Source: Candidatus Lokiarchaeum ossiferum (GTDB lineage: Archaea; Asgardarchaeota; Lokiarchaeia; Sigyniarchaeales; Promethearchaeaceae). Taken from it: a DNA stretch of 32,000 nt. A program made the translations under genes and the position numbers. The notes beneath the pieces were generated by a model. That model was not told the origin of the DNA, made no database searches, and saw nothing but the letters and a program-made list of their open reading frames with translations. Location: the NCBI GenBank assembly GCA_025839675.1, contig CP104013.1, positions 2,970,001-3,002,000 on the forward strand, in the 5' to 3' direction. This document shows, one piece after another, positions 80 to 25,125 of this stretch; positions within the stretch are counted from its first letter, which is position 1, and the number at the start of each line of letters is the position of its first letter.

Positions 80-250
80 CTATTTTTTTTTTTCATCATA
101 GCATTTGACAGAATTATTCATTTGATCGCATATTTCTTGATCTAACGGACTTGTGGGTTGATTTTGAGCATCAGGATGCTGCTCTGCAAATAACTTCTGA
201 GAATTTTTCAATATTTTCTCCACTTTTGAATTTATTTGTGCAATTTCCAT
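80..250 (-). CDS. Small hypothetical protein, 56 aa (MEIAQINSKVEKILKNSQKLFAEQHPDAQNQPTSPLDQEICDQMNNSVKCYDEKKK)
   Basis: Hand-translated ATG(250)…TAG(80-82) ORF, below the 60-aa cutoff of the supplied track. The sequence is hydrophilic and looks helical. An AT-rich TATA-like element (AATAAATTT) lies about 27 nt upstream of the ATG. No family was recognised. Confidence 0.2.
   Translation of the reverse strand: MEIAQINSKVEKILKNSQKLFAEQHPDAQNQPTSPLDQEICDQMNNSVKCYDEKKK
83..93 (+). terminator. Oligo-T (T11) run, putative archaeal terminator for the gene ending at 65
   Basis: Uninterrupted T11 directly downstream of a stop codon. Archaeal RNAP terminates at oligo-T tracts. Confidence 0.3.
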
Positions 251-567
251 ATCCGTCTAGATACAAATCAAATTTATTCCATATAGTTTTATTTATTTGT
301 GTTAACAGTACAGATAGACATAATTGTATCTCCCAATTTTCTTGTAGGTATTAAATTATGGTGCATACTTTACTACTTTAAGAAATTAGTAAGAAAATTT
401 TGTAGAAATTATCTGAGAAGTAGTATTAATTGATCTTTTTTGATCATCGAATGATTCATTAAAAGAAAATCAAGATATCTTTTGTTTTTCGAGAATTTTT
501 TAAATACTAGCAATTTTATAATAACAAGCCACCTTGAATGTTGGGATTTCGATGATTTGATGAAATA

Positions 568-1062
568 ATGATAATTGAAACAAAATATACAGAAAAAGAT
601 TACCATAACGCCTTTTCTTCGTATTATTCTTCAGTATGGGTCTTTAAAATATTCCCAATGTTTGGCACTATAGCTTTTGTGCTCCCTTTTATTTTATATG
701 GCATATATAAAAGGTTAAGTTACCATTTGGGACTCCTCCTTATAGTATCACTCTTTTGTTTTCTTTTTAAATGGATAATTATTACATTTAATGTAAAGGA
801 AATGAAATCCAATAAAAATTTTGGGAGCGCTAATGTGGTTGAATTCTTTAATGATGGGCGCATTGAGGCTAGATCGGAGAATGCGAAATCCGAATTTCGA
901 ATAGATAGCTTCATTCATTATAAAGTTTCTAAAGGTTGGATTTATCTATTTATTCAAAAAAATCTTTTTATTCCAATAAGGATTTCCGATGCTACTCCAA
1001 ATGAGTCGTTTGAAGAATTATTAGGATTATTGCATAAATTTGGAATAAAAAAGAAAGGGTAA
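568..1062 (+). CDS. YcxB-like membrane protein (two TM helices plus a small C-terminal domain)
   Basis: ATG start. Two hydrophobic helices (FPMFGTIAFVLPFILYGIY and LGLLLIVSLFCFLFKWIIITF) precede a roughly 80-aa soluble domain with the YcxB-like pattern (…WIYLFIQKNLFIPIRISD…). Recognition is from memory of the family. Confidence 0.55.
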   Translation: MIIETKYTEKDYHNAFSSYYSSVWVFKIFPMFGTIAFVLPFILYGIYKRLSYHLGLLLIVSLFCFLFKWIIITFNVKEMKSNKNFGSANVVEFFNDGRIEARSENAKSEFRIDSFIHYKVSKGWIYLFIQKNLFIPIRISDATPNESFEELLGLLHKFGIKKKG

Positions 1063-1513: not shown

Positions 1514-1765
1514 TCTTTCTTTTATTTCCTTTAATTGTGAGTTAGTTATTTTTGATACTATGGAATAATAGATCAGGAAGTCTAGTGAGTGGAAAGAAAG
1601 CATTTTGAGCTCTATAAATTAGAAAAATTAATTTTCATTTCAAGCGAATAAACTCAAAAAAGGATTAGATTGTTTCTGAAAGGAGATTAAAGTAAATTTT
1701 TGCTATGCAATAGGCTGTTCAAGGAATTTTTTTGGTTGCTTATAATCAGAATTCATGGCACAGGG

Positions 1766-2443
1766 TCAATTATCTGGTATCTCATCAAGCATTTTTTGGG
1801 AACATTCAGGACATAATCCATGAGTAAATTCAGTACCTTTGCTCATGCGAAAATAATCATCTACTGGGAGCCAAGAACCTTCTTCCGAATGGATTTTTTT
1901 ACATGAAGAACATATTGGAAGAATTGATTCGAGGGTGTGAATTTTCATTAAAGCTTCCTGAAGATCATTATTTCGAAAAATTAATTCTAAATCCGTTTCA
2001 ATGACTTTCTGAAAGCTTCCAACGAGTTTATTATAATTATCTGTATAAGCATTCGGTTTTGAATCCAAAACACAGACGGTTCCAAAGATTTCACCGTTTG
2101 GCCAACTAATCGGAAATCCAAGATAAGAAATCATACCGAGTTTTATATCCGGATTCTGATTCCATTCTGGATCGTTTAAAGCATCTTGAACAATTAAGGA
2201 TCGTTGGGATTGCATCACGGTGGTGCAATAGAGTCCACTTAATTTCGCCTTTTCTCCAACTTCATAGGGATTTCCTTGTGTGTTACTCGAAACAAAGACT
2301 TCTATATTTGGAGGAGAGACACGCATAATTAACCCAGAGGGGACATTGATAATTTCCGCCATGATATTAACAATTTCTTGCCAATTTTTAATAAATTTAT
2401 CTGGAATTGAAGTAGAATTGGTGGAAATATCAAAATTTTGCAT
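1766..2443 (-). CDS. GAF-domain sensor protein with a C-terminal CxxC…CxxC (zinc-ribbon-like) module
   Basis: 225 aa. Residues about 20-155 have a GAF-like pattern (…SGLIMRV…YCTTV…LGFPISWPNGEIFGTVCVLD…). The C-terminus reads ILPIC178SSC181KKIHSEEGSWLPVDDYFRMSKGTEFTHGLC211PEC214SQKM. Confidence 0.8.
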   Translation of the reverse strand: MQNFDISTNSTSIPDKFIKNWQEIVNIMAEIINVPSGLIMRVSPPNIEVFVSSNTQGNPYEVGEKAKLSGLYCTTVMQSQRSLIVQDALNDPEWNQNPDIKLGMISYLGFPISWPNGEIFGTVCVLDSKPNAYTDNYNKLVGSFQKVIETDLELIFRNNDLQEALMKIHTLESILPICSSCKKIHSEEGSWLPVDDYFRMSKGTEFTHGLCPECSQKMLDEIPDN

Positions 2444-2663
2444 AATAATTATTATGAGGCAATATTTGAAAAAAAATATTATTAAAAATTATTTGTGGAA
2501 GAGATATTCTTCTAACAAATTATAAGGCAAAATTACCATGGAGATCAAAAATCAAAATGTGAAGTCAAATTTTTTCACATTTTTGGCGTTAAGACATTTA
2601 AAAAGTCAATTCATCATTATAATGGCATAGAATTATATAAGATTGAAACAGATTGAGAAGTGG

Positions 2664-3737
2664 ATGGCAATTCAAATATATGTATTCCTCAGGATGAGCT
2701 TAAACGGAGTTTTGTTCATTCTTTTTATAATATTTCTGTATAAAGCAATACGAAGGAAACAATTTGCCCCATTTTTGACTGGAAGCTTTTCTTTAGCTTT
2801 GATCGGCAACACTATAATCTTATTCACAGATCAAATCATTAAAATCAATTTATACGGTCATTTTCTGGTGGCTGTTTCTTTTTCTCTAATTTATCTTCAT
2901 TGTGTTGCCTTGATCAATTCCAGGCCAAACATGTTTATCCAGATCTTTTTCATCAGCTTGAATTCAGCCATTTTATTGATCTCTATGTTGAAATCTTTTG
3001 ATCTGCTTAGCGAAAATATTGCATCTCAGCTTGTAATGCAAATTTCTTCAACAATAAAAATGGTAGCACTGGTATTTTCTGTTATCATTGAGGTCAAGAT
3101 ATATTCAAACACGAAATTGGTAACTGTTAAAATAGAATTGATTTCAATTGTCATCTTGCTGATCTATGCAATCAACTTATTTATCCGAGATTTTTTATTT
3201 TTTTCAGAATATGCAATGATTTTTACCCAAATTTCGTGGTTTTCGGTTTTACTAGGGAGTATCCTATTAATTTGCAACTATATAACGCATGCAAACTACA
3301 TATACTATCTTCCCTTTCCGATTCATAGTATCATTGTATATAATGAAGGCGGAATGTTAACCTATGCTCAAAAATTTAATAATTCGAAATTTACTGATCA
3401 ACTTCCAGATGCTTTAATTTCTGGAATATACTCAGCAATATCATCATTAGTTAGAGATACATTGGGAGTAGGTGCTCAGTTGCAACATATTAATGCAGAT
3501 AAATATCAAATCTATTTCAAAGAAACTTCTAATTTGAAGGCAACCTTGGCAGTGATAGCCTTAGGGAAATCATTCTTTTTCCAAAAATCACTAAATAAAT
3601 TCATTGATTCCATCCCTAATAGTTTAATTAATGAAATAAATCAACCAGGGGTTGCTTTATCGGATTTTCAGCAAGAAATTGAGGAGTATGTTAAACAGTC
3701 TTTTCCTTATATTCAAATTCTAAATGATTTAGATTAA
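2664..3737 (+). CDS. Seven-TM membrane protein with a C-terminal cytoplasmic longin/roadblock-like domain
   Basis: The ORF opens at TTG 2643 and the first ATG is 2664 (MAIQIYVF…). I count seven hydrophobic helices up to about aa 222. The C-terminal ~135 aa (IHSIIVYNEGGMLTY…PDALISGIYSAISSLVRDTL…YQIYFKE…ATLAVIALGK…FFQKSLNKFIDSI) has a beta-beta-alpha-beta-beta-beta-alpha pattern. This domain is paralogous to the product of 24533-25084. Confidence 0.7.
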   Translation: MAIQIYVFLRMSLNGVLFILFIIFLYKAIRRKQFAPFLTGSFSLALIGNTIILFTDQIIKINLYGHFLVAVSFSLIYLHCVALINSRPNMFIQIFFISLNSAILLISMLKSFDLLSENIASQLVMQISSTIKMVALVFSVIIEVKIYSNTKLVTVKIELISIVILLIYAINLFIRDFLFFSEYAMIFTQISWFSVLLGSILLICNYITHANYIYYLPFPIHSIIVYNEGGMLTYAQKFNNSKFTDQLPDALISGIYSAISSLVRDTLGVGAQLQHINADKYQIYFKETSNLKATLAVIALGKSFFFQKSLNKFIDSIPNSLINEINQPGVALSDFQQEIEEYVKQSFPYIQILNDLD

Positions 3738-4943: not shown

Positions 4944-7925
4944 TTGAAGGAAATGTCAGAACAAATATATCGGCAAGTTTTTGAAGGTGCTGCTGAGGGG
5001 ATTTTGATAGCAGATGTTAATACCAAGGAATTTTTATTTGCAAATCCTGCAATATGTAATCTATTAAAGTATTCTAAGGATGAATTAATTCGTCTATCAG
5101 TTTTGGATATTCACCCAAAGGAAGAGTTGGATCATGTACTTTCTGAATTTAATGCACAAGCCCGGGGTGAAAAAATTGTGGCAATGAGCATACCTTGTTT
5201 AAGAAAAGATGGAAAAGTGATCTATGCTGATATCAATACTACTAGGGTAATCATTAATAATAAGGAATATAACCTTGGGTTTTTTTCGGATGTTACCTCA
5301 CGAATAGATGCATTAAAGCAAGCTCAAGATCACATAATATTTCTAGAAAGTCTAGATAAAATTGAAGTAGCTATCAGATCTGCCACAAACGCAGAAGAAT
5401 TGCTTCATAATGTTTTGCAAGAAGTTTTCGCTATTTTCAATTGCGATAGGGCATTTCTATTTTACCCATGTGATCCTGAATCCCCTAGTTACCGAATTCC
5501 ATTTGAAATTTTTAAAAAGGAATATCCAGGAGCTTCCATCCAAGATCTGGACCAACCCATGAGACCTGGAGAAGTAGATATATGCAGAGCAGTTCTTGCA
5601 ACAAGCAATCCTATATCTTATGGACCAAATGGCGATTTCCCACTCTATACAGAAGGTACAGAACAATTTGGAATTCTTTCACAATTAGTAATAGCAATTC
5701 ATCCGAAATTAGATAAACCTTGGATTCTCGGTTTGCACCAATGTTCATTTGCTCGAATTTGGTCACCCGCAGAATATACACTTTTGAAGGAGATTGGTCG
5801 CCGGATATCTGACGGTTTAAATAGCTTGCTTATATTTCAACAACTCCAAGAAAGTCAAATGGAATATAAAAATCTTCTTGATGCTATTCCAGATATGGTT
5901 TGGGTAAGTGATTTGGAAGAAAAATTTCTATTTGCTTCGGAAGGCTGGAAACGTATTGCAGGTTATGATCCTAAAGAGTTGATTGGAAAACCTTTCTACG
6001 ATATAATGGTGAAAGAAGAACAAGCGGAACTTGATTTTGCACCTGAAGAATATCAAGAAGGAGTTAAAGAAAAATTTGATGATCTTAAAACAAAAGAAGC
6101 AGCTTATCGTGATTTTCTAAATTGGAATTATCATAAAAATGGTGAAAAACGATGTCACTCATCTAGCGCAGTGCCTCGATATGATAAACAAGGTAAATTT
6201 ATTGGATATGTAGGGATTGATAAAGATATAACAGATTGGGTTAAAGCAGAAAGAGCCTTAAAAATGAATCAAATACGTTTGGAAGCCCAAATTAAGCTCA
6301 ATAATATGATATCATCATCCATTACCCAAATAACAGATTTTACTTTAAATGAGGCGATAAAAATGACCGAGAGTGAACTTGGTTATTTAGCTTTTATAAA
6401 TCATGATGAATCTATACTAACGATACAGAGCTGGTCCCAAAAAACGATGAAACAATGCCAGATTAAAGACAAGCCTTTGAAATTCCAAGTTAAAGATACC
6501 GGGTTGTGGGGAGAATCAATTCGTCAAAGAAAACCAACAATTACTAATGATTATGATGCTCCTAATCCCTTCAAAAAGGGGATTCCAGAAGGTCATATTC
6601 ACCTTTCACGACATTTAAATGTTCCAATTTTTGAGAAAGACAAGATTGTTGCTTTGATAGGCGTTGCTAACAAGAAAGAAAATTATGATGAAGCAGATAT
6701 TTCCCAGTTGACCTTACTAGTGCAAGCAATGTGGATGATTATTACTAGGAAAAAATCAGAGGAGGAACTTCAAAAAGTTGAAGATCAGCTGATTCAAAGT
6801 AGAAAAATGGAAGCTATTGGACAACTTGCTGGGGGAGTTGCGCATGATTTCAATAATATCTTGGCGGGAATATTGGGTGCTGCTGAAGTTCTTATGGATA
6901 TAAATACAGATAATTCAAACCAAATAGAATTTTTAGAAATGATAATTCAGGATGTAAAACGTGCATCAACTTTAACCAACAAACTTTTAACTTTCAGCCA
7001 TAAAAATAAGAAAAAATTTGAGACAATCGATTGTTTAGAGGTAATTAATGACACAATCAGCATATTAAAACGAGCGATTGATAAAAAAATAAATATCAAA
7101 TTTGAAAACAACGCAGTTCAATCAATTATTTACGGAGATGAGTTTCAGCTGGAGAATGCTTTCATGAATATTGGGATAAATGGAAGCCAAGCCATGAAAA
7201 ATGGAGGAAATCTTAATTTTAAGACCAGTAATGTCTATTTGGATCAAACCTACTGTGACCATTCAATTTTTTCAATAACTCCAGGGGATTATTTTATGCT
7301 GGAAATTAAAGATGAGGGAATTGGAATTGTTCCAGAACATCTCACCAAAATTTTTGAACCTTTTTTTACAACAAAAGAATTAGGAAAAGGAACGGGGTTA
7401 GGTTTATCTGTTACCTATGGAATAATTCAAGAACATAATGGCGCGATAAAAGTGACCAGCGAAGTAGATGTAGGATCAAATTTTACAATTTATTTACCTC
7501 TAACCAAGGATCCTCTAACAATCCAATTGCCAAAAAAAATCACCCATGAGGGAAAAGGAACGATTCTACTTATTGATGATGAGGAAATGATTCGATATCC
7601 TGCGAAACGAATACTAGAAGGAATGGGTTACCACATAATTTTAGCAGAAAATGGTCGAGACGGTGTAAATAAATTTATTCAGCATCAAGATAGCATTATT
7701 TTAGTAATTTTAGACATGATAATGCCAATTATGAATGGAAGGGACACCTTTCTGGAATTACGGAGAATTGATGCTAAATGTAAAATAATTATTGCGACTG
7801 GATATGCGAAAGAAGAAAAAATTGAGGAATTGCGACAAATGGGACTATCCGGTGTTATTAAAAAGCCTTATCTTAAATCAGAACTAAGCATTCTCCTATC
7901 AAACATATTTTCGAATCACTCATGA
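4944..7925 (+). CDS. Hybrid sensor histidine kinase (PAS-GAF-PAS-GAF-HisKA-HATPase_c-REC)
   Basis: 993 aa.
- H-box: IGQLAGGVAHDFNNIL.
- N box: FMNIGINGSQAM.
- G1/G2: DEGIGI…GTGLGLSV.
- REC: ILLIDDEE…ILDMIMPIMNG…KKP.
- N-terminal PAS: YRQVFEGAAEGILIAD.
The start may be ATG 4953 rather than TTG 4944. Confidence 0.9.
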   Translation: MKEMSEQIYRQVFEGAAEGILIADVNTKEFLFANPAICNLLKYSKDELIRLSVLDIHPKEELDHVLSEFNAQARGEKIVAMSIPCLRKDGKVIYADINTTRVIINNKEYNLGFFSDVTSRIDALKQAQDHIIFLESLDKIEVAIRSATNAEELLHNVLQEVFAIFNCDRAFLFYPCDPESPSYRIPFEIFKKEYPGASIQDLDQPMRPGEVDICRAVLATSNPISYGPNGDFPLYTEGTEQFGILSQLVIAIHPKLDKPWILGLHQCSFARIWSPAEYTLLKEIGRRISDGLNSLLIFQQLQESQMEYKNLLDAIPDMVWVSDLEEKFLFASEGWKRIAGYDPKELIGKPFYDIMVKEEQAELDFAPEEYQEGVKEKFDDLKTKEAAYRDFLNWNYHKNGEKRCHSSSAVPRYDKQGKFIGYVGIDKDITDWVKAERALKMNQIRLEAQIKLNNMISSSITQITDFTLNEAIKMTESELGYLAFINHDESILTIQSWSQKTMKQCQIKDKPLKFQVKDTGLWGESIRQRKPTITNDYDAPNPFKKGIPEGHIHLSRHLNVPIFEKDKIVALIGVANKKENYDEADISQLTLLVQAMWMIITRKKSEEELQKVEDQLIQSRKMEAIGQLAGGVAHDFNNILAGILGAAEVLMDINTDNSNQIEFLEMIIQDVKRASTLTNKLLTFSHKNKKKFETIDCLEVINDTISILKRAIDKKINIKFENNAVQSIIYGDEFQLENAFMNIGINGSQAMKNGGNLNFKTSNVYLDQTYCDHSIFSITPGDYFMLEIKDEGIGIVPEHLTKIFEPFFTTKELGKGTGLGLSVTYGIIQEHNGAIKVTSEVDVGSNFTIYLPLTKDPLTIQLPKKITHEGKGTILLIDDEEMIRYPAKRILEGMGYHIILAENGRDGVNKFIQHQDSIILVILDMIMPIMNGRDTFLELRRIDAKCKIIIATGYAKEEKIEELRQMGLSGVIKKPYLKSELSILLSNIFSNHS

Positions 7926-7971
7926 CATGCCTCAATGTTTTTTAAGCTAGAAACCTTATTATATACCTACA

Positions 7972-9894
7972 TTGCCCACCAATTTATTTTCTCAAATTGA
8001 TTCCAGTCGGATATTATTTGATATTTCCCCAAATCCACAAGTTCTTCTTAACAAAAAGTATCTTATCGTAGAAGTTAATGAGGAATTTTCCAAAGTTATG
8101 GGTTATTCCAAAGAAGAAATGCTTAATAATCCAGTATCATCAATTTTTGCGAATATTCAAGAATATATCGAAGCTTCAGCCCTATTTACTCGAGATAATA
8201 AGCTCAAAAATTTTGAAATGATTCCGAAAATTGTGGATGGTTCAATTCAATATATGCTACTAAATATTAGGCAAATAATTGATCAACGACAAGATTTTTT
8301 AGGATATTTACTGACCTTCACAGAATATACTGCGATAAAAAATGTCATGGAATATACTCGACTAATCATTGAAACTTCTCCCAATCCTCAAATATTTTTG
8401 AATATCAACAATGAGATTTCAGATTTGAATAAACAATTATTGAAGGTAACAGGATATCAACGCGAAGATTTGATTGGAAATCCGGTTTCAATAGTTTTCC
8501 GTGATCATGAACAGTATCGAGCAGCCAACATCATCTTGAGAAAAGAAGGCCAGTTAAAAGATTTTGAAATGATCCCAAAATCTAGAGATGGAACGATATT
8601 TCACATGTTATTAAATATAAAACCCATGATAGATAAAAATGAAACAGTTTTGGGTTCTTTGCTTACTTTTACTGACATAACATCGCTCCGAAAGGCAATA
8701 GAAGTTGTTGAACAAATAACTGGGGATGTTTATTCAAGTAATACATTAGAAGAAAGAACAAATAATTCCCAACCAAAAAAAAATCAGCAAGATTTAGCTT
8801 CTATTAATCAAATAAAGATGGAAGCTGAGCTGAAAAAACGATCTCATGATTTAGATGAACGTATTAAGGAGTTACAATGTCTTTATGGAATTGACAAAAT
8901 TCTAGAAAATGAGGGGCTTTCCGTCAATGAGATTTTTCAGAACATTGTGTCTATCTTACCAGCAGGTTGGCAATTTCCTGAAATCACCAGAGCAAAAATA
9001 GAATTTGATGGGATCGCTTATATTTCTGCACAATATATTAATACAAATTGGAAGCAACGAAATAATATTCGGATTAATGGAGAAATTCGGGGGTATATTG
9101 AGGTTTTTTATTTGAAAAAAATGCCGAATGCTTCAGAAGGTCCATTTTTAAGAGAAGAACGTCATTTGATAGACGCAATTACTGAACGAATTGAAACCGT
9201 CTTTGAAAAAAAATTGGAGGAAAAAGCCCGAAAGCAGGCAGAAGAGAAGTTACAAGAACATGCTAGACGATTAGAAAACTCATTAAAAGAAAAGGAAGTT
9301 CTTCTTTCGGAAATTCACCATCGGGTGAAAAATAATCTCCAACTAATCTTTAGTTTAATTCTTCTGCAAGAACAATATGTTACAGATGAAAAACTCCAAT
9401 TAATGTATCGAGATTTTAAAAATCGCGTCAAAGCCATGAGTCAAATTCACGAAACACTATATTCCAGCGGGGATATCACCAAAATTAACTTTAATGCATA
9501 TATCCAAGAGATTATCACTAATTTAATTCACAGTTATTATATTGAAACGAATGTGGTTAAGTTGGATATATCAATCGAACAAATTGATATAAGTTTTAAT
9601 AAAACTATCTTATGTGGTTTGATTGTGAACGAAGTAGTATCAAATGTATTGAAATATGCTTTTCCAGACAATAAGAAGGGTAAACTTAAAGTAAAGATAC
9701 GAAAAAATAAAAAAAACGGAAATATTACAATCAACATTCAAGATAATGGAGTTGGATTCCCACTGGAGTTTGATTATTTAAAAACAGATACCTTAGGGTT
9801 ACGTATAGTGACATCTCTTTCAAAGCAACTTAAGGGATCTATTTCAATGAAAAATGAAAATGGAGTAAAATTTAACTTATCTTTCCAAGAATAG
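7972..9894 (+). CDS. Sensor histidine kinase, HisKA_2 type (2x PAS, a 'CLYGI' sensor module, HisKA_2, HATPase_c)
   Basis: 640 aa.
- Two tandem, clearly paralogous PAS units are present (SPNPQVLLN…FEMIPK…DG / SPNPQIFLN…FEMIPKSRDG).
- H-box: EIHHRVKNNLQLIFSLILLQ.
- N box: NEVVSNVLKYAF.
- G boxes: DNGVGF…LGLRIV.
- TTG 7972 is the only standard start upstream of the first PAS domain. There is an in-frame stop at 7948-7950, and the first ATG lies inside PAS1. Confidence 0.85.
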   Translation: MPTNLFSQIDSSRILFDISPNPQVLLNKKYLIVEVNEEFSKVMGYSKEEMLNNPVSSIFANIQEYIEASALFTRDNKLKNFEMIPKIVDGSIQYMLLNIRQIIDQRQDFLGYLLTFTEYTAIKNVMEYTRLIIETSPNPQIFLNINNEISDLNKQLLKVTGYQREDLIGNPVSIVFRDHEQYRAANIILRKEGQLKDFEMIPKSRDGTIFHMLLNIKPMIDKNETVLGSLLTFTDITSLRKAIEVVEQITGDVYSSNTLEERTNNSQPKKNQQDLASINQIKMEAELKKRSHDLDERIKELQCLYGIDKILENEGLSVNEIFQNIVSILPAGWQFPEITRAKIEFDGIAYISAQYINTNWKQRNNIRINGEIRGYIEVFYLKKMPNASEGPFLREERHLIDAITERIETVFEKKLEEKARKQAEEKLQEHARRLENSLKEKEVLLSEIHHRVKNNLQLIFSLILLQEQYVTDEKLQLMYRDFKNRVKAMSQIHETLYSSGDITKINFNAYIQEIITNLIHSYYIETNVVKLDISIEQIDISFNKTILCGLIVNEVVSNVLKYAFPDNKKGKLKVKIRKNKKNGNITINIQDNGVGFPLEFDYLKTDTLGLRIVTSLSKQLKGSISMKNENGVKFNLSFQE

Positions 9895-9906
9895 TGCTAA
9901 GAAATG

Positions 9907-11838
9907 TTATAGGGAACGATTTATGATGTCTTTTAATTGTTGAAGTGTAAAAGGTTTTTTTAGAACACCAATAAAACCATACGATATTGGGTCTGCCATG
10001 ATTGGATCATTAGAATAACCGCTACTCACAATTGCCTTTACATTTGGATCAAATTCTTTGAGTAAAACGATCGTTTCTTTCCCACCCATCGCACCTGGAA
10101 TAGTGAGATCCATAATTAACAAATCTACGGGATTTTCCGATGATTTAGCTTCCTTATATTTTAAAATCGTGTCTTTTCCATCATCCGTGAAGATAGCATG
10201 ATGTTTGAGATGTTTAAACATTTTCACTAGGATTTTTTGAATAGAAGGATCATCTTCTAACACCAAGATTGTCTTATTAGAAGTTGATTTCGAGGATTTA
10301 GATTTTGGTGGTGAAATAGAATTTGAACTCAAACCTTCAGAAATTACAGGAAGATAAATATAAAAGGTTGTTCCATGAGTTTCTGGAGCAGTACTAGAAA
10401 TAAAATAAATATAACCGTTATGGCCTTTCACAATAGAATACGCAGTGGCCAAACCTAAGCCACTTCCAGATGATTTAGTAGAAAAATAGGGTTCAAAAAT
10501 ACGAGATTGAATATCTTTTGGAATTCCAGAACCATGATCTTGTATCATAATCTCGATATATTTACCAGGGAGAAGATTTATTTTTTTTTGAATTTCTCGA
10601 TACCGGAGAAAATTTGTTTTTGTGTCAAAATTATGGAAACTAAGTATAATTTCTCCCCCTTTAGACATTGATTGATCCGCATTTATCACAATATTGCCAA
10701 TGACTTGAGAAATCTGGTTGGAATCAACATAACAATCCCACATTTTTTCATCAAAATCTAAAGTACATTTCGATTTGGAACCTCGTAAAGCAAATATTGC
10801 AGTAGAAGAAATTAATTGTGTAATGGATACATTAGATTTTACAGGCTTACCACCTTTTGAGAATGTAAGCAATTGATATGTAAGATTTTTTGCACGCATA
10901 ATTCCAGATTCTGTTTCACGTAGAATGGATTTGATATCTTCTAAATTATTTTCTTCTAATGCTAAACTCACATTTCCTAAGAGAGAAGCGAGAATATTGT
11001 TAAAATCGTGGGCAATTCCCCCTGCTAAATTTCCAATTGATTCTAATCGTTCCTGTTTTATTCGTTCTAGAGTTACTTTTTGACTTTGGGAAATGTGTCG
11101 TAAGAAACCTAAAACTTCAGTTGCTTCTTGATCTTGATATATAAATTGCAAATTAACTTCTCCCAAGAATTTTTCACCCGATTTAGAAATAATCTCAATT
11201 TCATGATAATCCTGAGTGGCCAGTCCTTTTTGTTTTTGTTGAATTAAATCTGTTAAAAATTCAATGGAATTGGGCGCAATAAATTCCTTAAAAGATATTC
11301 CAAGGATTTCATCTATTCTATAACCCGTTAGATTTAATCCGGCCTCATTAATTGAAGAAATTGTTCCATCATCTAAATGAACGGAAAAAACAACATCAGA
11401 AGAACGTTCAAATATTCGTTTATAACGTAATTCAGTATCTATTATGGATTCTTCTATGTTTCGAGAAAATGTAATATCTTGAAATTGCAGTGCAAAATAA
11501 GTCTGGATCTTGAAAACTCGTATAAAAACACAAATACTAGATTTATTTGACATAGGATCAATTTTCTGCGGATTGATCCAGATATCGTTGAATTTTGCAG
11601 ATTCTCCATGATTCAAAGATGAAATGTGCTCAATAATCCCAATATTTCGGAAATTCATGTCTTGAAAAAGATTATATGATTGGATGTGGAAAACTCCAAA
11701 GATGTCACGAAAAGATTGATTAAAATTCAAGACATTTCCCACTGAATCAACAATAAGTAATCCTAAAGGGTTTAACGCAAAAAATTCATTGCATAAATCT
11801 TTATCAAGCATTTTTTTCAAACTTTCCCGAACTTCCAA
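9907..11838 (-). CDS. Hybrid sensor histidine kinase (PAS-PAS-HisKA-HATPase_c-REC)
   Basis: 643 aa.
- H-box: IGNLAGGIAHDFNNIL.
- ATPase motifs: NADQSM, DHGSGI, GSGLGLA.
- REC: ILVLEDDP…LIMDLTIPGAMGG…KKP.
The start is TTG 11838 or ATG 11811. Confidence 0.9.
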   Translation of the reverse strand: MEVRESLKKMLDKDLCNEFFALNPLGLLIVDSVGNVLNFNQSFRDIFGVFHIQSYNLFQDMNFRNIGIIEHISSLNHGESAKFNDIWINPQKIDPMSNKSSICVFIRVFKIQTYFALQFQDITFSRNIEESIIDTELRYKRIFERSSDVVFSVHLDDGTISSINEAGLNLTGYRIDEILGISFKEFIAPNSIEFLTDLIQQKQKGLATQDYHEIEIISKSGEKFLGEVNLQFIYQDQEATEVLGFLRHISQSQKVTLERIKQERLESIGNLAGGIAHDFNNILASLLGNVSLALEENNLEDIKSILRETESGIMRAKNLTYQLLTFSKGGKPVKSNVSITQLISSTAIFALRGSKSKCTLDFDEKMWDCYVDSNQISQVIGNIVINADQSMSKGGEIILSFHNFDTKTNFLRYREIQKKINLLPGKYIEIMIQDHGSGIPKDIQSRIFEPYFSTKSSGSGLGLATAYSIVKGHNGYIYFISSTAPETHGTTFYIYLPVISEGLSSNSISPPKSKSSKSTSNKTILVLEDDPSIQKILVKMFKHLKHHAIFTDDGKDTILKYKEAKSSENPVDLLIMDLTIPGAMGGKETIVLLKEFDPNVKAIVSSGYSNDPIMADPISYGFIGVLKKPFTLQQLKDIINRSL

Positions 11839-11959
11839 AATTGGTTGTCATCTAACCAAACACCTACGTTTTAATATAGCTTTTTTTTTGCAAAGTTTTT
11901 TAGAAATATCTTTGTTGATCGGAATTAGGTTTATAACCGATATACGGTTTTTTTACTCA

Positions 11960-13252
11960 ATGCATCGACCGTTGATTACTGGAATTATTCAAAATATGGC
12001 TTTTAAAAAGTGTGAATTTAGTAAAGATGATAAATTGTATATTTTCGGGCGTAATCCAGAGCTTTCTCTGGCCGAAATTATCTCACGCTTTCATGTGATA
12101 GGGAGTACATATAAGATCAAAGCAATGAACAAAATTGGTGTAGTAATTGAAGCACCCAAACATATTTCTATCAGTAATTGTGGGGCGGTATTAAAACGAA
12201 GCAAACCACTAACAACCATCCATCAACCCTTAAATGTTCAAAATATAAAAAAGGACCTCACAGATCATATTATCAACGAATTTTTTGAAGAAAAAGGCAA
12301 TTGGACAATCAGCTATTATGCAAAAAAAATGGGACCTGAAGAAGAATATCTTTACCAAACAGTCCAAAAAATTATAAAAAATTCTCTAAAGAAAGCGGGT
12401 GTTAGAAAGGCTTTCTTCTTCAAAGGCGAGAAAAATAATATTGTGGAACCCCGAAGATTATGGCGCAAAAGAGTAATTCAAGACGGATTAGAAATAATTA
12501 TTTGGCAAAATAAAGGGGAGTTTACTCTCTGGCAAACTGAGGAAGTTATAAATATAGATGAAATAGCTAAGCGAGATAGTGATCGACCCCACAAACGGCC
12601 ACTTTTATTGTTAGGACTTGCACTTGCTCGGAGTATGATAAATCTAGTTTCTATTGAATCAAATCACCACGATCGTCCTATTTATGATGCATTTTGTGGA
12701 ATGGGATCAATTGTAAGTGAAGCTTATCATTTAGGTTTACAATCTTTAGGATCTGACATAGACGGATCTTGTACAACACGATCTCAAGAAAATTTGAGAT
12801 GGATTAGCCATTTAAAACCCAATCGTAAAAAGCGAGGCATTTTTCAAGAAAAAAACATCTTTACAATGGATGTAATGACCCCTGATATGGATAGATTGAA
12901 AAATTTCAATGGATCGATCGTTTCAGAACCAAATTTATTGACACCTTTAAAAAAATATCCCACTTACGCTAAAGCAAATGCACTCTTAGATACCTTTGAA
13001 AAAAATTATCGCGGTTATTTAGCAGGAATTAGAAAAATTTTGCCTAAAAATGGCATATGTGTGCTGATTTTCCCTCAATTTCACATTTCCACCAATGAAC
13101 GCGTGGGCTTAAATATAATTCAACTTCTTGGAGACTTTGGATTTAAAATGTGTGAATTTTCAATTGATTCATACAAATATCCCGCTCATTTTGTCCATTC
13201 GTGGAAAGATCCAATAATTGAACGACAAATAGTTGTTTTTAAAAAAGTTTAA
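11960..13252 (+). CDS. Trm11/UPF0020-like SAM-dependent RNA (guanine-N2-type) methyltransferase with an atypical motif IV
   Basis: - SAM motif I: YDAFCGMGSIVSEAYHLGLQSLGSDID.
- The N-terminus (LYIFGRNPELSLAEIISRF) resembles Trm11-family N-terminal domains.
- Motif IV reads SEPNL instead of (D/N)PPY.
- The track ORF starts at 11789, but residues 1-57 overlap the divergent kinase gene and look non-coding.
- ATG 11960 has a TTTATAA box 27 nt upstream; ATG 11996 is an alternative. Confidence 0.7.
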   Translation: MHRPLITGIIQNMAFKKCEFSKDDKLYIFGRNPELSLAEIISRFHVIGSTYKIKAMNKIGVVIEAPKHISISNCGAVLKRSKPLTTIHQPLNVQNIKKDLTDHIINEFFEEKGNWTISYYAKKMGPEEEYLYQTVQKIIKNSLKKAGVRKAFFFKGEKNNIVEPRRLWRKRVIQDGLEIIIWQNKGEFTLWQTEEVINIDEIAKRDSDRPHKRPLLLLGLALARSMINLVSIESNHHDRPIYDAFCGMGSIVSEAYHLGLQSLGSDIDGSCTTRSQENLRWISHLKPNRKKRGIFQEKNIFTMDVMTPDMDRLKNFNGSIVSEPNLLTPLKKYPTYAKANALLDTFEKNYRGYLAGIRKILPKNGICVLIFPQFHISTNERVGLNIIQLLGDFGFKMCEFSIDSYKYPAHFVHSWKDPIIERQIVVFKKV

Positions 13253-13970: not shown

Positions 13971-15104
13971 GTGAAGAGGAAGAATTTAACAATCAAGGCA
14001 ATTCGAGTTCTATTAGCGCTAGAACAAAAGCCTTTAGCCACATATGATGAACTTTCTATTATTACTGGTTATGCAAAATCCGTTGTTTTTGGAATTATGA
14101 AACAGCTAAGTTCTTCTAAAGATCATCCTTCATATTTTTATGTCGTTGGTCATCCTAATCTTCATGCTTTGGGTTTAGAAGTTGTGGACGTCTTTGTTCA
14201 CGCAAATTCAATTGAACAAGTTACAAATCTCTATAAAATTTGTCAAGCTCATCCGTATACAATAGTATTTGCTCCTTGTTATGGTGCTACTAATGGAGCT
14301 TTGGTGCAATTTCGGATTCCTTTAAATTCTAAATCTCTGATAAATGACCTTTTTTCTCATTTTAAAGAGAATAATGTCATTCAAGACTTCCAAATCTTAA
14401 ATTTCGGAACAAAATCTATTTATACTTCTATTGATGTTAAATTCTGGGATTTTTCTTCCTTTTGTTGGAATTTTAATTGGGAAGAATGGTTTTCTTTTGA
14501 AATATCAGAATCAAAATCAGAACCAAAAACATTTGGAAAAGTAGGAACCGTAAAATCTTGGCTTAAAAAACGAGATATTGCTATACTTGCTCAGCTAACT
14601 GATGATGCAAGGAATAAAAAAATTGATATGATTAAAGCTTTGAAACAACAAGGATATAATTTTACGCCTCAAACCTTTAGTCGACGATTAAAACGTGTAA
14701 AAGATGAATGTATTTCTAAATATCGTGTTTTCATGGATTTAGCGTCTTTTGATTTGTTGAATTGTATAGCTATTTTAGGAAAGGGTAAAAAAAAAGAGAT
14801 TCAAGAACTTACTCAACGAGTATCATCTCAGCAAATTCCCTTTCATTCAGTGTTCAAATCAGAAAAGAATCGATTTTTTTGGTATTTATATCTACCTACC
14901 ACTCATACTGCAGATTTATTATATCATATTCGTCCCAAATTTAGTGATATAAAAATGTACTATATAGACCAACCTCGCAGTCATTTATTTTTACCTTGGC
15001 CTGAAACTTTTAATGAAGAGAAGGAAGATTGGAAAGTAGATCGCCAGTTCATGGTCGATGATGTAATTACCGCCCTAATTCCAAAGGATGAATCAACGGA
15101 TTAA
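13971..15104 (+). CDS. Putative transcriptional regulator with two winged-helix (Lrp/AsnC-like) HTH modules
   Basis: 377 aa.
- HTH 1: IKAIRVLLALEQKPLATYDELSIITGYAKSVVFGIMKQL.
- HTH 2: LKKRDIAILAQLTDDARNKKIDMIKALKQQGYNFTPQTFSRRLKRV.
- Each HTH is followed by a ~100-aa alpha/beta region.
- The GTG 13971 start is forced. There is an in-frame TAG at 13962-13964, and the first ATG lies after HTH 1. Confidence 0.6.
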   Translation: MKRKNLTIKAIRVLLALEQKPLATYDELSIITGYAKSVVFGIMKQLSSSKDHPSYFYVVGHPNLHALGLEVVDVFVHANSIEQVTNLYKICQAHPYTIVFAPCYGATNGALVQFRIPLNSKSLINDLFSHFKENNVIQDFQILNFGTKSIYTSIDVKFWDFSSFCWNFNWEEWFSFEISESKSEPKTFGKVGTVKSWLKKRDIAILAQLTDDARNKKIDMIKALKQQGYNFTPQTFSRRLKRVKDECISKYRVFMDLASFDLLNCIAILGKGKKKEIQELTQRVSSQQIPFHSVFKSEKNRFFWYLYLPTTHTADLLYHIRPKFSDIKMYYIDQPRSHLFLPWPETFNEEKEDWKVDRQFMVDDVITALIPKDESTD

Positions 15105-15459: not shown

Positions 15460-18400
15460 TTACAAAGTGAAATAACTACCTGAATTCCCATCAAATTCCA
15501 TAGGAGCATCGCCACCACTGTGAGGATACACTGAAGCAGCATAATCAAAAGCCGCTTCCATCGTTGTGGTTGCACTGCTACCAAAATGGTTGATCAAAGT
15601 ATATTCAAGGAAGTAATAAGTCCAAGCTCCATTATTATGGGCAGAATCATCATATCCATAGCCATCTTCAGTGCATGTGGTTGTGCAATAGACGTTATTA
15701 CTGTTAGGCATGGCCATTAATTCAGGACCAATTCCACCAGAATAACAATGATCAATGAACACAAATATGTCATCAGCAATGGCTCCATCAAGAATAGCAG
15801 CTAATTCAGTGTCATAAAAATCACCATCTTCACCACTTTCACCTGAACCGCAATCCCATGAGCAAATGTATGAACTACCAGATCCAGTACCAGAACCATG
15901 ACCAGAAGTGATATAAACGATTTCACCTTCTTGTTGAGCTAACCAATTCAAATAATATTTGGTATTGGCTTCGGTAGCTAGTCCATCATATTTTGGAAAA
16001 TTAGATGGATGACCATCACCAAGTACTATAATATTTGATTCTTCAAAGCCACAAACTGTGGTAAGATAATTGAAATAATCGGTTACATCTTCATCACAGT
16101 AAGATAAATCCGAAATTGCTTTATAATCAGAGACACCACAAAGTAAAGCATATTTTCCTCCAGTGCTAACCTCGTTATCAACAGTAATCGAAATAGAATC
16201 AATTTGACTATTTCCTGCGGCATCAAAGGCTTGAACTGATATGGTGTGACTACCTTCAGAAAGAGTGGTTGTATCAAAACTCCAGGAATAAGGAGCTGAT
16301 GCATCAGAAGTCCAGGATCCTGAATCAACTCGACATTGGACATCAACTACACCAACATTATCAGTGGCAGATGCAGTTATGGAAATTGTGTCTTCCACAG
16401 TGGCCCCATTAGATGGGGAGGTAATGGAAACGGTTGGTTTTTCATAATCCCCACCTGTTCCTCCAGTATAATAGCTCACAGTAGCGGTATACGCGGTGCT
16501 AGAAGCACTAGATGTGTACATCCGGACTGCAATATAGTAGGTTCCAGCAGTTTGAATGTTATATGAACAGGTTTCTGGATTGCTTGTGGTGTACCCCCGT
16601 GCAAGATATGAAGAATAGGATGCTGTTTGACAAATATACACATCAATATCATAACTTCCACTCCAGGAAACTGAAACGTCCATCATACCAGCTTCTACGG
16701 CAGATAATTCAAAGTAGTCAACTTCAGATCCAGCCACGCTTCCAGTAAGATCACGTTCAATCAATTGAACATCCCCATTATCATTGTCAACGGTGATGCT
16801 AACGTCATCTTCCCCAAAGTTTCCAGCAGCATCATACGCTTGTACCGTAATTGTATGAGCACCATCTGATAGAGTAGTAGTATCTAGTGACCAAGAATAT
16901 GGACTAGTAGAATCAGTTGTCCAAGATCCACTATCGACTTGATATCGAAGATAATCGACACCAACATTATCAGATGCGGATGCAGTTATAGAAATTGTAT
17001 CATCCACAGTGGCTCCATTTGATGGAGATGTGATAGAAATTGTTGGTTTTTCAGTATCAACAACAGTTCCACCAGTATAGTAAGAAACAGTGGTGGTGTA
17101 GCTTGTGCTTGATGCATATGAGGTGTACATTCTTACTGCAATATAATAAGTTCCAGCAGTTTGAATGTTATATGAACAAGTTTCAGGATTGCTAGTAGTA
17201 TAACCTCGTGCTAAATAGTTAGAATAACTAGCGGATGTGCAAATATATACATCAATATCATAACTATTTCCCCATGTGGCAGAAACCTGCATAAGACCAG
17301 GTTCAACATCTGTCAATTCAAAATAATCAACTTCACGTCCAGCAACTGAGCCAGTCAAATCTTCAGTAATTTGATCGGCTTTTTCATCAGCTAATTCATC
17401 AATTACACTTGCAACACCTAAGCTATAATATGATAATTCGGCAGAATAGGCCGTACTAGAAGCCCAGTAAGAGTACATCTTAATCCCAATATAATAAGTT
17501 CCTGCGGTTTGAATTTCATAAGAACAAGTTTCAGGATTATTAGTTGTATATCCTCGAGCAAGATAATTGGTAGTTGATTGAGTTGTTGAGATGTAACAAT
17601 CAATATCATAACTATTTCCCCATGAAACATCTAATTCCATTAATCCTGGTTGAGCTTCTACAATATACCAATCAGTTTCTCCTCGTCCAACACTACCTTC
17701 AAAGGTCTCAGTTATAGGAATTGGATTTGAATTGTCATTTGAGACACTAATTGAAATACTATCTTCATCAAAATTACCGGCTGCATCAAAAGCTTGAACA
17801 GTTATGGAATGACTTCCATCCGATACTGAAGTTGAATCCCAAGTCCAAGTATATGGTGCTGAATAATCTTGAACCCATGATCCAGAATCAATTCTATATT
17901 GAACATAGGAAACACCCACATTATCTGAAGCAGAAGCTTCAATGGCAACATCACCTAAAACAGTATCTCCAGATGATGGATTTGAAATTGCAACGGTAGG
18001 ATCAATTATATCTTCTCCACTGCTTGAACCTTTATAGTAAGATACGGTTGCTGTGTATGCGGTGGAAGAGGCACTACTGGTATACATTCGAATTCCAATA
18101 TAATAAGTTCCGGCTGTTTGAATTTCATAAGAAGTTGTTTCAGGGTTGTTAGTAGTATATCCTCGAGCAAGATAAGAGTTATAATTTGCAGTTTCACAGA
18201 TGTATGCATCAATATCATAACTTCCACTCCAAGAAACTGAAACATCCATCATTCCTGGTTCAACATTAGTAAGTTCAAAATAATCAATTTCAGATCCGGC
18301 GACGGAGCCTACTAAAGATTCAGTCACTAATATTGGACCTGTATAATCTTGATCAACATTTACAGTTATTTCATCAATATCGGTATTTCCTGCTTCATCA

Positions 18401-21662: not shown

Positions 21663-22220
21663 TTAGAAAAGCGCATCTTCATGAATCGTTTCAAGACAAG
21701 AATAAGTGTTTTCAGTTTTTAACCCACTTTTCTCCATAATTTGAAAAATAAAAGATTCCAAACAATCAATACATCCTTCATCTTTAGAAGTAATGGGAAG
21801 AAAAGTTAATTGATGAATTAACGAATATTGAGTAATATTTTCAAGTTCATCGCATGTAAACGGTACTAGATCAATTTTATTCCTAATAATTAAAAATGAG
21901 ACTCTCCGAAGATTTTTTTCTTGAATTTTCATCTTCAAATAGCTAAAAAGTTGAGATGATTGAATTGTGAAATGATCACACACGAAAATAACTAAGTCCA
22001 CACCTTCAATTACTGGGGGAAAATTAAAAAAATCATTTATACTGGTGCCTCCGATTTCAATGAAATTCACATCAGTGGATAATCTTGATAAGTAATAAGT
22101 TTGCAAATCAACCCCAATTGTCGGTAAATAACTGGTTGTAAATTCTCCAGATCCAAATTTTTGCAAGATCTGTGTCTTCCCAACTCCAGGTTCTCCGATA
22201 AGTAATATTTTATAAACCAT
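21663..22220 (-). CDS. Ras/Rab-like small GTPase with a non-canonical G3/switch II
   Basis: 185 aa.
- G1: GEPGVGKT.
- Switch I: YLPTIGVD.
- G3: EIGGTS in place of DTAGQE.
- G4: NKID.
- G5-like: TSK.
- No CAAX or prenylation tail. Confidence 0.85.
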   Translation of the reverse strand: MVYKILLIGEPGVGKTQILQKFGSGEFTTSYLPTIGVDLQTYYLSRLSTDVNFIEIGGTSINDFFNFPPVIEGVDLVIFVCDHFTIQSSQLFSYLKMKIQEKNLRRVSFLIIRNKIDLVPFTCDELENITQYSLIHQLTFLPITSKDEGCIDCLESFIFQIMEKSGLKTENTYSCLETIHEDALF

Positions 22221-24532: not shown

Positions 24533-25054
24533 CTATTCTTCTTCTTTTTTTCCTAAGTATTTTTTAAAGGCGTCTTTGAAATCCATCATCTTTCTTTTAT
24601 ATTGAGAACTTGCTACGTGATGTGCCAGTTTCAACCCTTTTAATTTGGTAATTTCTTCCATTTGTTGGGCAATTGCATCAAAGGATGAGACATTTCCAGA
24701 AAAAGATTCAGTAATTTCTGCTTGAAATTGTTTTGAGAATCTTGTTTTCATTCGTCCCAACACTTTTTCTGCGATAGCTACCGGACCCTTTCGATCCATC
24801 ACTACAACAAAACCAAGTTCTTCATTAAAGGAAAAAACCATACGAAAATTTTGTGTCTCCACCAATCGAATATCTTCTTGTAGGACTTCATTCGTAAAAT
24901 GCATAAAGGAAGTTAATAAACCGGAAATTAAAATTCCACTAATTTCTGTCATATCTGGCAGTTCTTCCACTGCCACATCTAATAAATTAAGACCCGAATG
25001 CCGTTGAAAAACGAGTATTTTATAAATTCCCATAATAAACAAAACAAGAATCAT
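24533..25054 (-). CDS. Longin/roadblock-like domain protein (paralogue of the C-terminal domain of 2664-3737)
   Basis: The ORF runs from TTG 25084, with ATG candidates at 25054 and 25033 (MGIYKILVF…). Pattern: IYKILVFQRHSGLNLLDV…GILISGLLTSFMHFTNEVL…IRLVETQNFRMVFSF…GFVVVMD…AEKVLGRMKTRFSKQF. It lies 41-92 bp downstream of the ABC pair on the same strand. Confidence 0.6.
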   Translation of the reverse strand: MILVLFIMGIYKILVFQRHSGLNLLDVAVEELPDMTEISGILISGLLTSFMHFTNEVLQEDIRLVETQNFRMVFSFNEELGFVVVMDRKGPVAIAEKVLGRMKTRFSKQFQAEITESFSGNVSSFDAIAQQMEEITKLKGLKLAHHVASSQYKRKMMDFKDAFKKYLGKKEEE

Positions 25055-25125
25055 AGCCTTATTTGTCTTTGGATAGGCAAACAAATGATATTCTACAATG
25101 AAGTGAAAAAGAATATAAAAAAAAT

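Follow-up and report, generated by a model that had tools for sequence, protein, structure and literature searches.

A seven-helix membrane protein with a predicted cytoplasmic longin domain represents a new domain architecture in Asgard archaea

Prokaryotic receptors of the 7TMR-DISM type, reportedly described by Anantharaman and Aravind in 2003, combine a seven-transmembrane (7TM) domain with diverse intracellular signalling modules. Among lysosomal sensors, SLC38A9 is coupled to Ragulator and the Rag GTPases, similarly to LYCHOS/GPR155 with GATOR1 and PQLC2 with WDR41-C9orf72/SMCR8. In the latter two systems, GTPase regulators built on longin/roadblock domains are recruited or controlled at a membrane by a polytopic protein (PMC11525196, PMC8213707, PMC12290439). 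The actinobacterial conservons consist of a membrane sensor kinase (CvnA), a roadblock/MglB protein (CvnB), CvnC and a Ras-like GTPase (CvnD), and have been likened to G protein-coupled receptor (GPCR) signalling (PMC13343842, PMC13621833). In TRAPP, Mon1-Ccz1, DENN, FLCN, GATOR1 and SRX-SRbeta, longin domains pair up into platforms to which Rab, Arf and Rag GTPases bind and by which these are regulated (PMC12290439, PMC8213707). Asgard archaeal genomes are rich in genes for small GTPases and for longin/roadblock proteins (PMC10933270; 10.1101/2020.10.19.343400). Here we describe a gene from Candidatus Lokiarchaeum ossiferum, located in a stretch of 32,000 nucleotides (contig CP104013.1, positions 2,970,001 to 3,002,000; hereafter the window), whose product joins a 7TM bundle to a C-terminal longin domain and is referred to below as the 7TM-longin protein.

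Compared with these systems, the 7TM-longin protein stands apart in how its parts are joined. The conservons, with a prokaryotic membrane sensor, a roadblock/longin-class protein and a small GTPase, are among the closest in logic; yet their components are separate proteins of one operon, whereas the 7TM-longin protein would hold sensor and platform in one polypeptide and has no GTPase in an operon with it. Their sensor is also histidine-kinase-like and not a 7TM bundle, and their platform is a roadblock and not a longin domain. The lysosomal couplings are comparable in logic as well, and the membrane part of LYCHOS includes a GPCR-like 7TM domain, but they are non-covalent and use longins of the GTPase-activating protein (GAP) type with a GP motif and an arginine finger, while the 7TM-longin family has no GP motif, carries its longin domain in cis and shows no detected homology in the membrane part. 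Earlier Asgard surveys recorded stand-alone longin/roadblock proteins and fusions to GTPase domains, TRAPPC3 and two-component modules, with no 7TM fusion described (PMC10933270; 10.1101/2020.10.19.343400). Our full-text literature searches on Asgard longin, roadblock, 7TM and GPCR proteins likewise found no paper on a 7TM-longin fusion, although the family may already have an asCOG number with a terse annotation in the supplementary tables of Liu et al.; the initial annotation of this DNA was likewise aware of no experimental description. Our verdict is that the domain architecture of the 7TM-longin protein is real and new, a combination of known folds, with a mechanism that can be proposed by analogy only.

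The open reading frame (ORF) at 2643/2664-3737 (+) is the sole long one at that position. An orthologue in Ca. Lokiarchaeum ossiferum, annotated as a hypothetical protein, is 98% identical, has the same length of 357 aa and begins with the same MAIQIY, so the start was assigned to ATG 2664, about 26-33 nt downstream of a TATA-like, A/T-rich ttatataa (the window as a whole is AT-rich, with 30-39% GC). A word-indexed search returned just 11 relatives, all similar in length. An exhaustive hidden Markov model (HMM) search, which used a profile of the C-terminal domain only (alignment A3), was run against representatives of 50%-identity clusters and returned at least 208 of them at E<=1e-3, with 123 of the 208 at E<=1e-10. 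Almost all of these are 340-390 aa long with the domain at about residues 220-370, and seven is the modal count of hydrophobic segments in the family; most of the short matches look like truncated gene calls beginning inside the seventh transmembrane helix (TM7). One match, P0161 (3300 aa, highly repetitive), reached E 2.5e-7 to the longin-domain profile through four short stretches and was rejected as a compositional/repeat false positive, which shows that matches near E 1e-6 in this search need checking. All named sources (Lokiarchaeum, Promethearchaeota, Heimdallarchaeaceae/Heimdallarchaeota and Hodarchaeota) are Asgard archaeal, and the gene is shown to be one member of a large unnamed family whose named members all belong to this group.

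Neither Pfam (at E<=1) nor NCBIfam matched the window protein, and precomputed Pfam domains were present on none of the family members, as might be expected of a chance hydrophobic ORF or a mis-joined gene. Given at least 208 relatives, however, the gene is not a chance ORF: the domain sits at the same position in almost all representatives, the single ORF is kept uninterrupted in 20 or more loci of different Asgard lineages, and the full-length structural model is of high confidence. Family-wide conservation thus refutes an artefact, to which we assign next to no probability. Several paralogues can occur in one genome or sample, for instance as divergent neighbours in L011 (3-551 (-) and 745-1908 (+)) or as L022 and L024 from one metagenome, and two GPJ51 locus tags (GPJ51_15690 and GPJ51_08625) fall in the family. 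Such multiple copies suggest a multigene, receptor-like family. Whatever its mechanism, the family merits a Pfam/InterPro model, as no current model recognises either half.

For the C-terminal domain, the initial annotation had described about 135 aa of soluble protein in a beta-beta-alpha-beta-beta-beta-alpha pattern and had proposed a longin or roadblock fold. The full-length AlphaFold2 (AF2) model from a 90-sequence alignment (A4; pLDDT 92.8, pTM 0.89) agrees with this pattern and adds further C-terminal helices; it superseded an earlier model from 12 sequences (pLDDT 73.5), in which the bundle was resolved and the C-terminal domain was poor (pLDDT 42-76), and which gave Foldseek matches at E 0.03-0.1 only. 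The predicted elements are strands at aa 220-227, 232-237, 275-278, 281-287 and 293-299 and helices at 249-267 (alpha1, the 'LISG' helix), 304-316 and 319-325 (alpha2) and 336-346 (alpha3), followed by a terminal F-P-Y. Over about 135 aa this beta-beta-alpha-beta-beta-beta-alpha-alpha succession is the longin order and not the roadblock order. The 'LISG' helix is indeed conserved among the 90 aligned members, which are also the basis of the family counts below: L251 occurs in 71/90, S253 in 60/90 and G254 in 76/90.

Comparisons of structure and sequence point the same way. In Foldseek searches against the PDB, the best 15 matches were almost all longin domains (prob 1.00), among them a Drosophila TRAPP core subunit (7b6d_C, E 9.8e-4) and TRAPPC1/Bet5 (2j3t_C, TMt 0.64, root-mean-square deviation (rmsd) 4.2 A), which together with 9l0d_A and 7q3e_C make TRAPP and tri-longin proteins the best structural matches of the domain. 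Further longin matches were yeast TRAPPII/III subunits, Mon1-Ccz1, AP-2 sigma, COPI subunits and the CPLANE proteins Fuzzy/Inturned, and AP-3 was also among the good ones. Sub-threshold Pfam matches were to Sybindin (12/90 members, best E 2.8e-4), Fuz_longin_1 (4/90) and Intu_longin_1 (1/90), with no other recurrent soluble-domain family among the best 25 of 62 Pfam families; the family profile against PDB sequences had Trs23/TRAPPC4 (3cue_A, E 0.0022, aligned from beta1 to alpha1) as its top match. Because these three lines agree, the domain is supported as a predicted longin domain, nearest to the TRAPP/sybindin and Mon1/Ccz1/Fuzzy types. The roadblock half of the proposed fold was rejected. 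Roadblock proteins run alpha-beta-beta-alpha-beta-beta-beta, their N-terminal helix packing on the sheet, whereas the order of elements here is that of longins; Robl_LC7 is absent from the same best 25 families, and the roadblock proteins (MglB, dynein LC7, LAMTORs, Prometheoarchaeum Roadblock3) rank lower in Foldseek, many at rmsd 9-10 A.

TRAPP longins (Bet5/TRAPPC1, Trs23/TRAPPC4) and the tri-longin guanine nucleotide exchange factors (GEFs) Mon1-Ccz1 and Fuzzy-Inturned are thus the closest known proteins in fold. They have the same order of elements and are the sole families with a recurrent sub-threshold sequence signal in the 7TM-longin family, yet that similarity stays below Pfam thresholds. 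They also differ in being soluble subunits of multi-protein complexes, none of them fused to a polytopic membrane domain, and TRAPP requires Bet3-type subunits in addition for GEF activity. Longin SNAREs (VAMP7, Sec22b, Ykt6) resemble the 7TM-longin protein in being membrane-attached with the longin domain on the cytoplasmic side, but their order is opposite, with an N-terminal longin domain, a SNARE motif and a single C-terminal anchor, whereas the 7TM-longin family has no SNARE coiled coil and seven helices in place of one. GAP-type longins of the FLCN, NPRL2, SMCR8 and C9orf72 class carry a GP motif at the start of beta2 beside a catalytic arginine (PMC12290439). A longin domain of this type was rejected, as the family lacks the GP motif at that position: G230 is invariant (90/90), and the next residue is L, I, M, V or T in at least 82/90, with Pro not among the five commonest there.

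The membrane part shows exactly seven Kyte-Doolittle peaks (aa 7-25, 37-55, 66-84, 91-109, 124-142, 152-170 and 186-204), and these agree with the helices of the AF2 model assigned by DSSP (aa 2-31, 36-54, 59-84, 90-111, 117-150, 153-178 and 184-208, with a short helix at 210-214 next), bearing out the seven hydrophobic helices counted initially. A basic cluster, KAIRRK, follows the first helix, and the extracellular N-terminus has only about 6 residues. Per protein, inside loops contain 6.8 K+R against 2.24 in outside loops plus N-terminus; the outside regions are twice as long as the inside loops, yet the inside excess holds in 90/90 members. Because of this excess the C-terminal domain is assigned to the cytoplasm, as had been claimed, and the predicted topology is N-out/C-in. 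No relative of the bundle was found in Pfam, NCBIfam or PDB sequences, and the shallow alignments A1 and A3, run as profiles against PDB sequences, brought no useful match. Like the 7TMR-DISM receptors, the 7TM-longin protein combines seven helices in the membrane with an output module in the cytoplasm; it differs in having no extracellular DISMED-type domain and no 7TMR-DISM_7TM match (window protein and 90 members), and in its output, which would be a longin domain and not a kinase, cyclase or phosphatase.

Conservation rises steadily from the outside of the bundle to the inside. Mean values are 0.61 bits for the outer loops, 0.75 for the outer halves of the transmembrane (TM) helices, 1.14 for the inner halves, 1.30 for the inner loops and 1.48 for the longin domain, and the linker from TM7 to beta1 (aa 205-219), which connects the bundle to the longin domain, has the highest value of all zones (2.14 bits), with P217 present in 89/90 sequences. 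The landmarks conserved in the family comprise this basic cluster behind TM1, G-N within TM2, Y-L-H-Y-E-A-L...R-P where TM3 ends on the inside, K...K.AT..E around TM5/TM6, N-Y..H-P-D-Y-I-Y-x-L-P-F-P-I-H spanning TM7 into beta1, and F-P-Y at the C-terminus, while the TM4-TM5 outer loop differs in length by more than 20 residues among subfamilies. A variable outside with a conserved inside is typical of receptor families. The pTM of 0.89 for the full-length model indicates that the domain is held in a defined orientation to the inner side of the bundle, and the junction between bundle and longin domain is predicted to be rigid and is highly conserved. Coordinates of these elements are collected in Table 1.

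Table 1. Positions of the 7TM-longin gene, its parts, the stand-alone paralogue and small GTPase genes (positions are those of the window unless a locus is named; GTPase distances refer to the 7TM-longin gene)
Feature	Position or locus	Strand	Basis or type
Complete gene, 357-aa 7TM-longin protein plus stop	2664..3737	+	ORF list, 98%-identical orthologue, full-length AF2 model
Seven-helix TM bundle, aa 2-208, N-terminus outside (predicted)	2667..3287	+	Hydropathy, AF2/DSSP, positive-inside bias
TM3 cytoplasmic end and first residues beyond, aa 77-88; family motif Y-L-H-Y-E-A-L...R-P	2892..2927	+	Alignment A5, per-column conservation
Most conserved segment, TM7 end and linker NY..H(P/A)(D/N)YIYxLPFP, aa 205-219	3276..3320	+	2.14 bits
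Cytoplasmic longin domain (predicted), aa 220-349	3321..3710	+	AF2 model, Foldseek, Pfam, Trs23 match
Stand-alone soluble longin paralogue, 166-173 aa	24533..25054	-	Homologue starts, Pfam Longin, hhalign, hmmsearch
Adjacent GTPase, convergent, 14-bp gap	L012/L013 (L012 7253-9014)		Rab/Ras-like
Adjacent GTPase, divergent	L023, Hodarchaeota contig, 212-823 (-) and 1537-2859 (+)		Rab/Ras-like
GTPase three genes off, opposite strand	One Heimdall clade, L002/L003/L015		
GTPase 5-8.5 kb off	Three loci		
GTPase 18 kb off	Window		
No GTPase on contig	Ten loci		

A soluble protein encoded elsewhere in the window, placed at 24533-25084 by the initial annotation, had been said to match the C-terminal domain. 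Its homologues begin with MGIYKI or MVGIY, 10-17 codons downstream of TTG 25084, and this upstream start is probably unused. The relationship is not demonstrable from the two sequences alone, neither BLASTP (E 0.54-1.4) nor a shallow profile-profile comparison with hhalign (E 0.096) being significant between the stand-alone and the 7TM protein. With the 89-sequence domain profile, hhalign aligned 121 columns, beta1 through the final helix, at Prob 97.3% and E 2.6e-11; among the window ORFs, hmmsearch picked out the stand-alone protein at E 6e-11, and the reciprocal profile matched Heimdall 7TM members at E 3.6e-7. Pfam Longin was found sub-threshold in 7/7 members of the stand-alone family. 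Judged at the profile level only, the stand-alone protein is a true paralogue of the predicted longin domain, and the claimed match stands in that form. A gap of 41 bp separates the gene from a tandem pair of ABC half-transporter genes that lies upstream on the same strand (27012-28817 and 25126-27009; all -), and because of this short gap and shared strand it looks co-transcribed with them. The same ABC half-transporter and longin arrangement occurs in a close relative (L021 4215-8501), and in both the window and L021 a GH31 glycosidase and a small GTPase (21663-22220 in the window) are next, within 2.3 kb.

Taking these features together, we propose that the 7TM-longin protein may be a receptor or transducer in the membrane. 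A ligand or the state of the membrane would be sensed by the outer, variable half of the bundle, and the change would be relayed via the conserved inner face (the H-Y-E of TM3, the intracellular loops and the linker) to the longin domain. This domain would probably form a homodimer or pair with a soluble longin/roadblock protein, for example the 24533-25054 paralogue, and so provide a platform for docking or regulation that is bound to the membrane. Its likeliest client would be a Ras-superfamily GTPase, of which Asgard archaea have many, and a GEF-like activity or recruitment would be likelier than GAP activity. By analogy with known longin platforms, we put forward, as a tentative but quite conceivable reading, that the longin domain forms dimers on which a small GTPase, or a further longin/roadblock protein, docks at the membrane, with the bundle modulating this. 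A more specific version, in which these proteins are one-polypeptide 'receptor-longin' transducers whose GPCR-like sensor controls a TRAPP/Mon1-type platform and thereby the recruitment or nucleotide exchange of an Arf-, Rab- or Rag-like GTPase, is speculative and on balance doubtful.

If true, eukaryotic membrane-coupled small-GTPase signalling (LYCHOS-GATOR1, SLC38A9-Ragulator, receptor-GEF logic) would have a prokaryotic forerunner or analogue in such a protein, which would tie environmental sensing to membrane or cytoskeleton remodelling in the lineage from which eukaryotes arose. When expressed in HeLa cells, roadblock, GTPase and TRAPPC3 proteins of Asgard archaea failed to target membranes (PMC10933270). 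The 7TM-longin protein offers a concrete, testable candidate for the missing membrane end of these switches, by which Asgard GTPases and longin/roadblock proteins would be attached to membranes and connected to signals. Members of the family occur widely across Lokiarchaeia and Heimdallarchaeia, the cultured Lokiarchaeum ossiferum included, and the family is an entry point to the question whether receptor-to-GTPase coupling predates eukaryotes.

Several findings, on the bundle as well as on the gene neighbourhood, weigh against a receptor coupled to GTPases. The membrane part had initially been called GPCR-like; its structural matches to GPCRs are weak, and no sequence homology to them was found. 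Within the best 50 Foldseek matches, those to the bundle were confined to class A GPCRs (NTSR1, CB1, SSTR2, H1R) plus a designed GPCR-like fold. Each of them is weak, at E 0.02-0.08 and TMq 0.33-0.40, and none reaches E<=1e-3; NTSR1 (9m0d_R) matched the final model at E 0.024 and TMq 0.33, while CB1 (8wu1_R, TMq 0.40) and the designed fold (8oyy_A, TMt 0.56) were matches of the early low-confidence model. 7tm_1 was absent for the window protein and from the best 25 of 62 Pfam families of the 90 members, and the family alignment contains none of the DRY, NPxxY and CWxP motifs. What is shared with class A GPCRs is the seven helices, the predicted N-out/C-in topology and a charged/aromatic motif conserved at the cytoplasmic end of TM3; GPCRs, however, signal to a heterotrimeric G protein or arrestin, whereas the output here would be the fused longin domain. 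The window protein itself departs from the family on the inner face. Its copy of the TM3 motif, YLHCVALINSRP, keeps H79 and P88 and lacks the consensus Y80 and E81 (Y80C, E81V), and at position 236, where 58/90 members have a basic residue, it has Q. A 75%-identical relative shares both the LHCV of TM3 (family 'LHYE') and the Q in place of R/K at this position of beta2, and the Lokiarchaeum subclade formed by these two may couple differently from the rest of the family. The conservation gradient could also stem simply from packing against the longin domain.

No ligand site was identified in the bundle, which would suit a constitutive anchor or scaffold that senses no ligand and merely fixes the longin domain to the membrane. 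The domain would then heterodimerise with soluble longin/roadblock proteins to build a platform like Ragulator or TRAPP, the bundle having a role similar to that of lipidated LAMTOR1 as the anchor of Ragulator. Dimers are the working form of the known longin and roadblock domains, and the window encodes a soluble paralogue of the domain. Many other stand-alone longin/roadblock proteins are present in Asgard genomes (10.1101/2020.10.19.343400; PMC10933270). Seven helices, however, are far beyond the needs of an anchor, and the diversified outer face and the paralogy are more like those of receptor families. The number of helices, the strongest conservation lying in the inner face and linker, and the confidently fixed orientation of bundle and domain together argue for conformational coupling rather than a passive tether, and we regard a pure anchor as rather unlikely.

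Conserved polar residues within the TM helices (H79, E81, E158, N205) raise a further alternative, a transporter or 'transceptor' whose bundle moves a small solute and whose longin domain regulates transport or reports occupancy. SLC38A9-Ragulator, PQLC2-WDR41-C9orf72/SMCR8 and LYCHOS-GATOR1 would be its eukaryotic analogues. Eukaryotes do offer precedents in which polytopic transporters of the lysosome are linked to GTPase regulators of the longin/roadblock class (PMC11525196, PMC8213707, PMC12290439), and weak family matches were obtained to MtN3_slv (E 0.021) and CitMHS (E 0.0049). These matches, however, came from one member each and are at noise level, the polar residues cluster at the cytoplasmic ends and not along a mid-membrane path, and the Foldseek matches of the bundle include no transporters. 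A SWEET/PQ-loop type 3+1+3 internal repeat was also sought and rejected (hhalign of TM1-3 against TM5-7, Prob 9.8%; other pairings <=10%). We therefore hold transport to be decidedly improbable, and continue with the proposed receptor or transducer.

Linkage of homologues of the gene to small GTPases had been suggested as a check, and no enrichment was seen. In 18 independent loci (about 248 kb), surveyed with a small-GTPase HMM scan and all-vs-all clustering of neighbours, a small GTPase was the adjacent gene in 2/18, in opposite-strand layouts, the two adjacent GTPases being 31% identical to each other. Density over the surveyed loci was about one small GTPase per 31 kb, near the background, which we take to be about 2% of Lokiarchaeal genes or one per 50 kb. 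Because about one adjacency is expected by chance, the two observed are no enrichment. A conserved operon partner was likewise looked for, and the neighbour clustering found none across clades. The missing synteny is nonetheless weak negative evidence, since most Asgard eukaryotic-signature genes are not in conserved neighbourhoods or operons (10.1101/2020.10.19.343400). Coupling to a GTPase is then a reasonable analogy that the genomic context does not support.

Some longin domains have GTPase-independent roles, and those of sigma/mu adaptins, zeta-COP and longin-SNAREs are structural or regulatory without contacting a GTPase. The 7TM-longin domain might similarly bind a lipid or a coat/adaptor-like or SNARE-like partner, or work as an autoinhibitory or dimerisation module; the AP-2 sigma, AP-3 and COPI subunits among its good structural matches, the absent GAP-type GP motif and the lack of GTPase enrichment nearby are all consistent with this. 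By structure and by sequence, however, it comes closest to longins of the TRAPP sybindin type and the Mon1/Ccz1/Fuzzy type, which serve as GTPase-binding subunits of GEFs, and a GTPase-independent role appears improbable to us.

The neighbourhoods have features of their own. In the clade of the window the gene has three conserved neighbours, which encode a GAF/zinc-ribbon protein (divergent), a TIM-barrel protein resembling xylose isomerase and a hybrid histidine kinase of the PAS/GAF kind, and this synteny is found only in one 75%-identical relative. In the window, three large PAS/GAF sensor histidine kinases (two receiver-domain hybrids and one of HisKA_2 type) lie directly downstream of the 7TM-longin gene at 4944-11838, and a GAF protein with a Cys-rich C-terminus is encoded divergently upstream at 1766-2443; the dense signalling neighbourhood is common to the 75% relative (L017/L018). 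The setting in the Heimdall clade is also conserved (L002 8585-9560; L003 2021-2984, 5623-6138; L015 8713-9676, 12314-12829), with two divergent unknown proteins of 122 and about 205 aa upstream and Ldh_2, an unknown 171-aa protein and an Arf-like GTPase downstream. The three small proteins gave no Pfam match and might be further longin/roadblock-like partners. The window GTPase at 21663-22220 (-), named in the initial annotation and unlinked to the 7TM-longin gene at a distance of 18 kb, matches Pfam Arf, Ras and Roc at about 1e-10 and has a normal P-loop (GEPGVGKT) and NKID. Its G3 is atypical (IEIGGTS vs DxxGQ), and because it contains neither the Asp nor the catalytic Gln, the protein may be a slow or regulator-dependent switch.

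Elsewhere in the window, 15460-19950 (-) encodes a 1496-aa secreted subtilisin-like protease with four near-identical repeats of about 190 aa (DYFELT...YDID.YIC...), Ig-like domains between them and a long C-terminal extension; GC rises to about 39% across this gene. The ORFs at 11789-13252 (+; 487 aa) and 13971-15104 (+; 377 aa) had no Pfam match at E<=1e-5, and the former contains D-A-F-C-G-M-G-S, which resembles motif I of SAM-methyltransferases.

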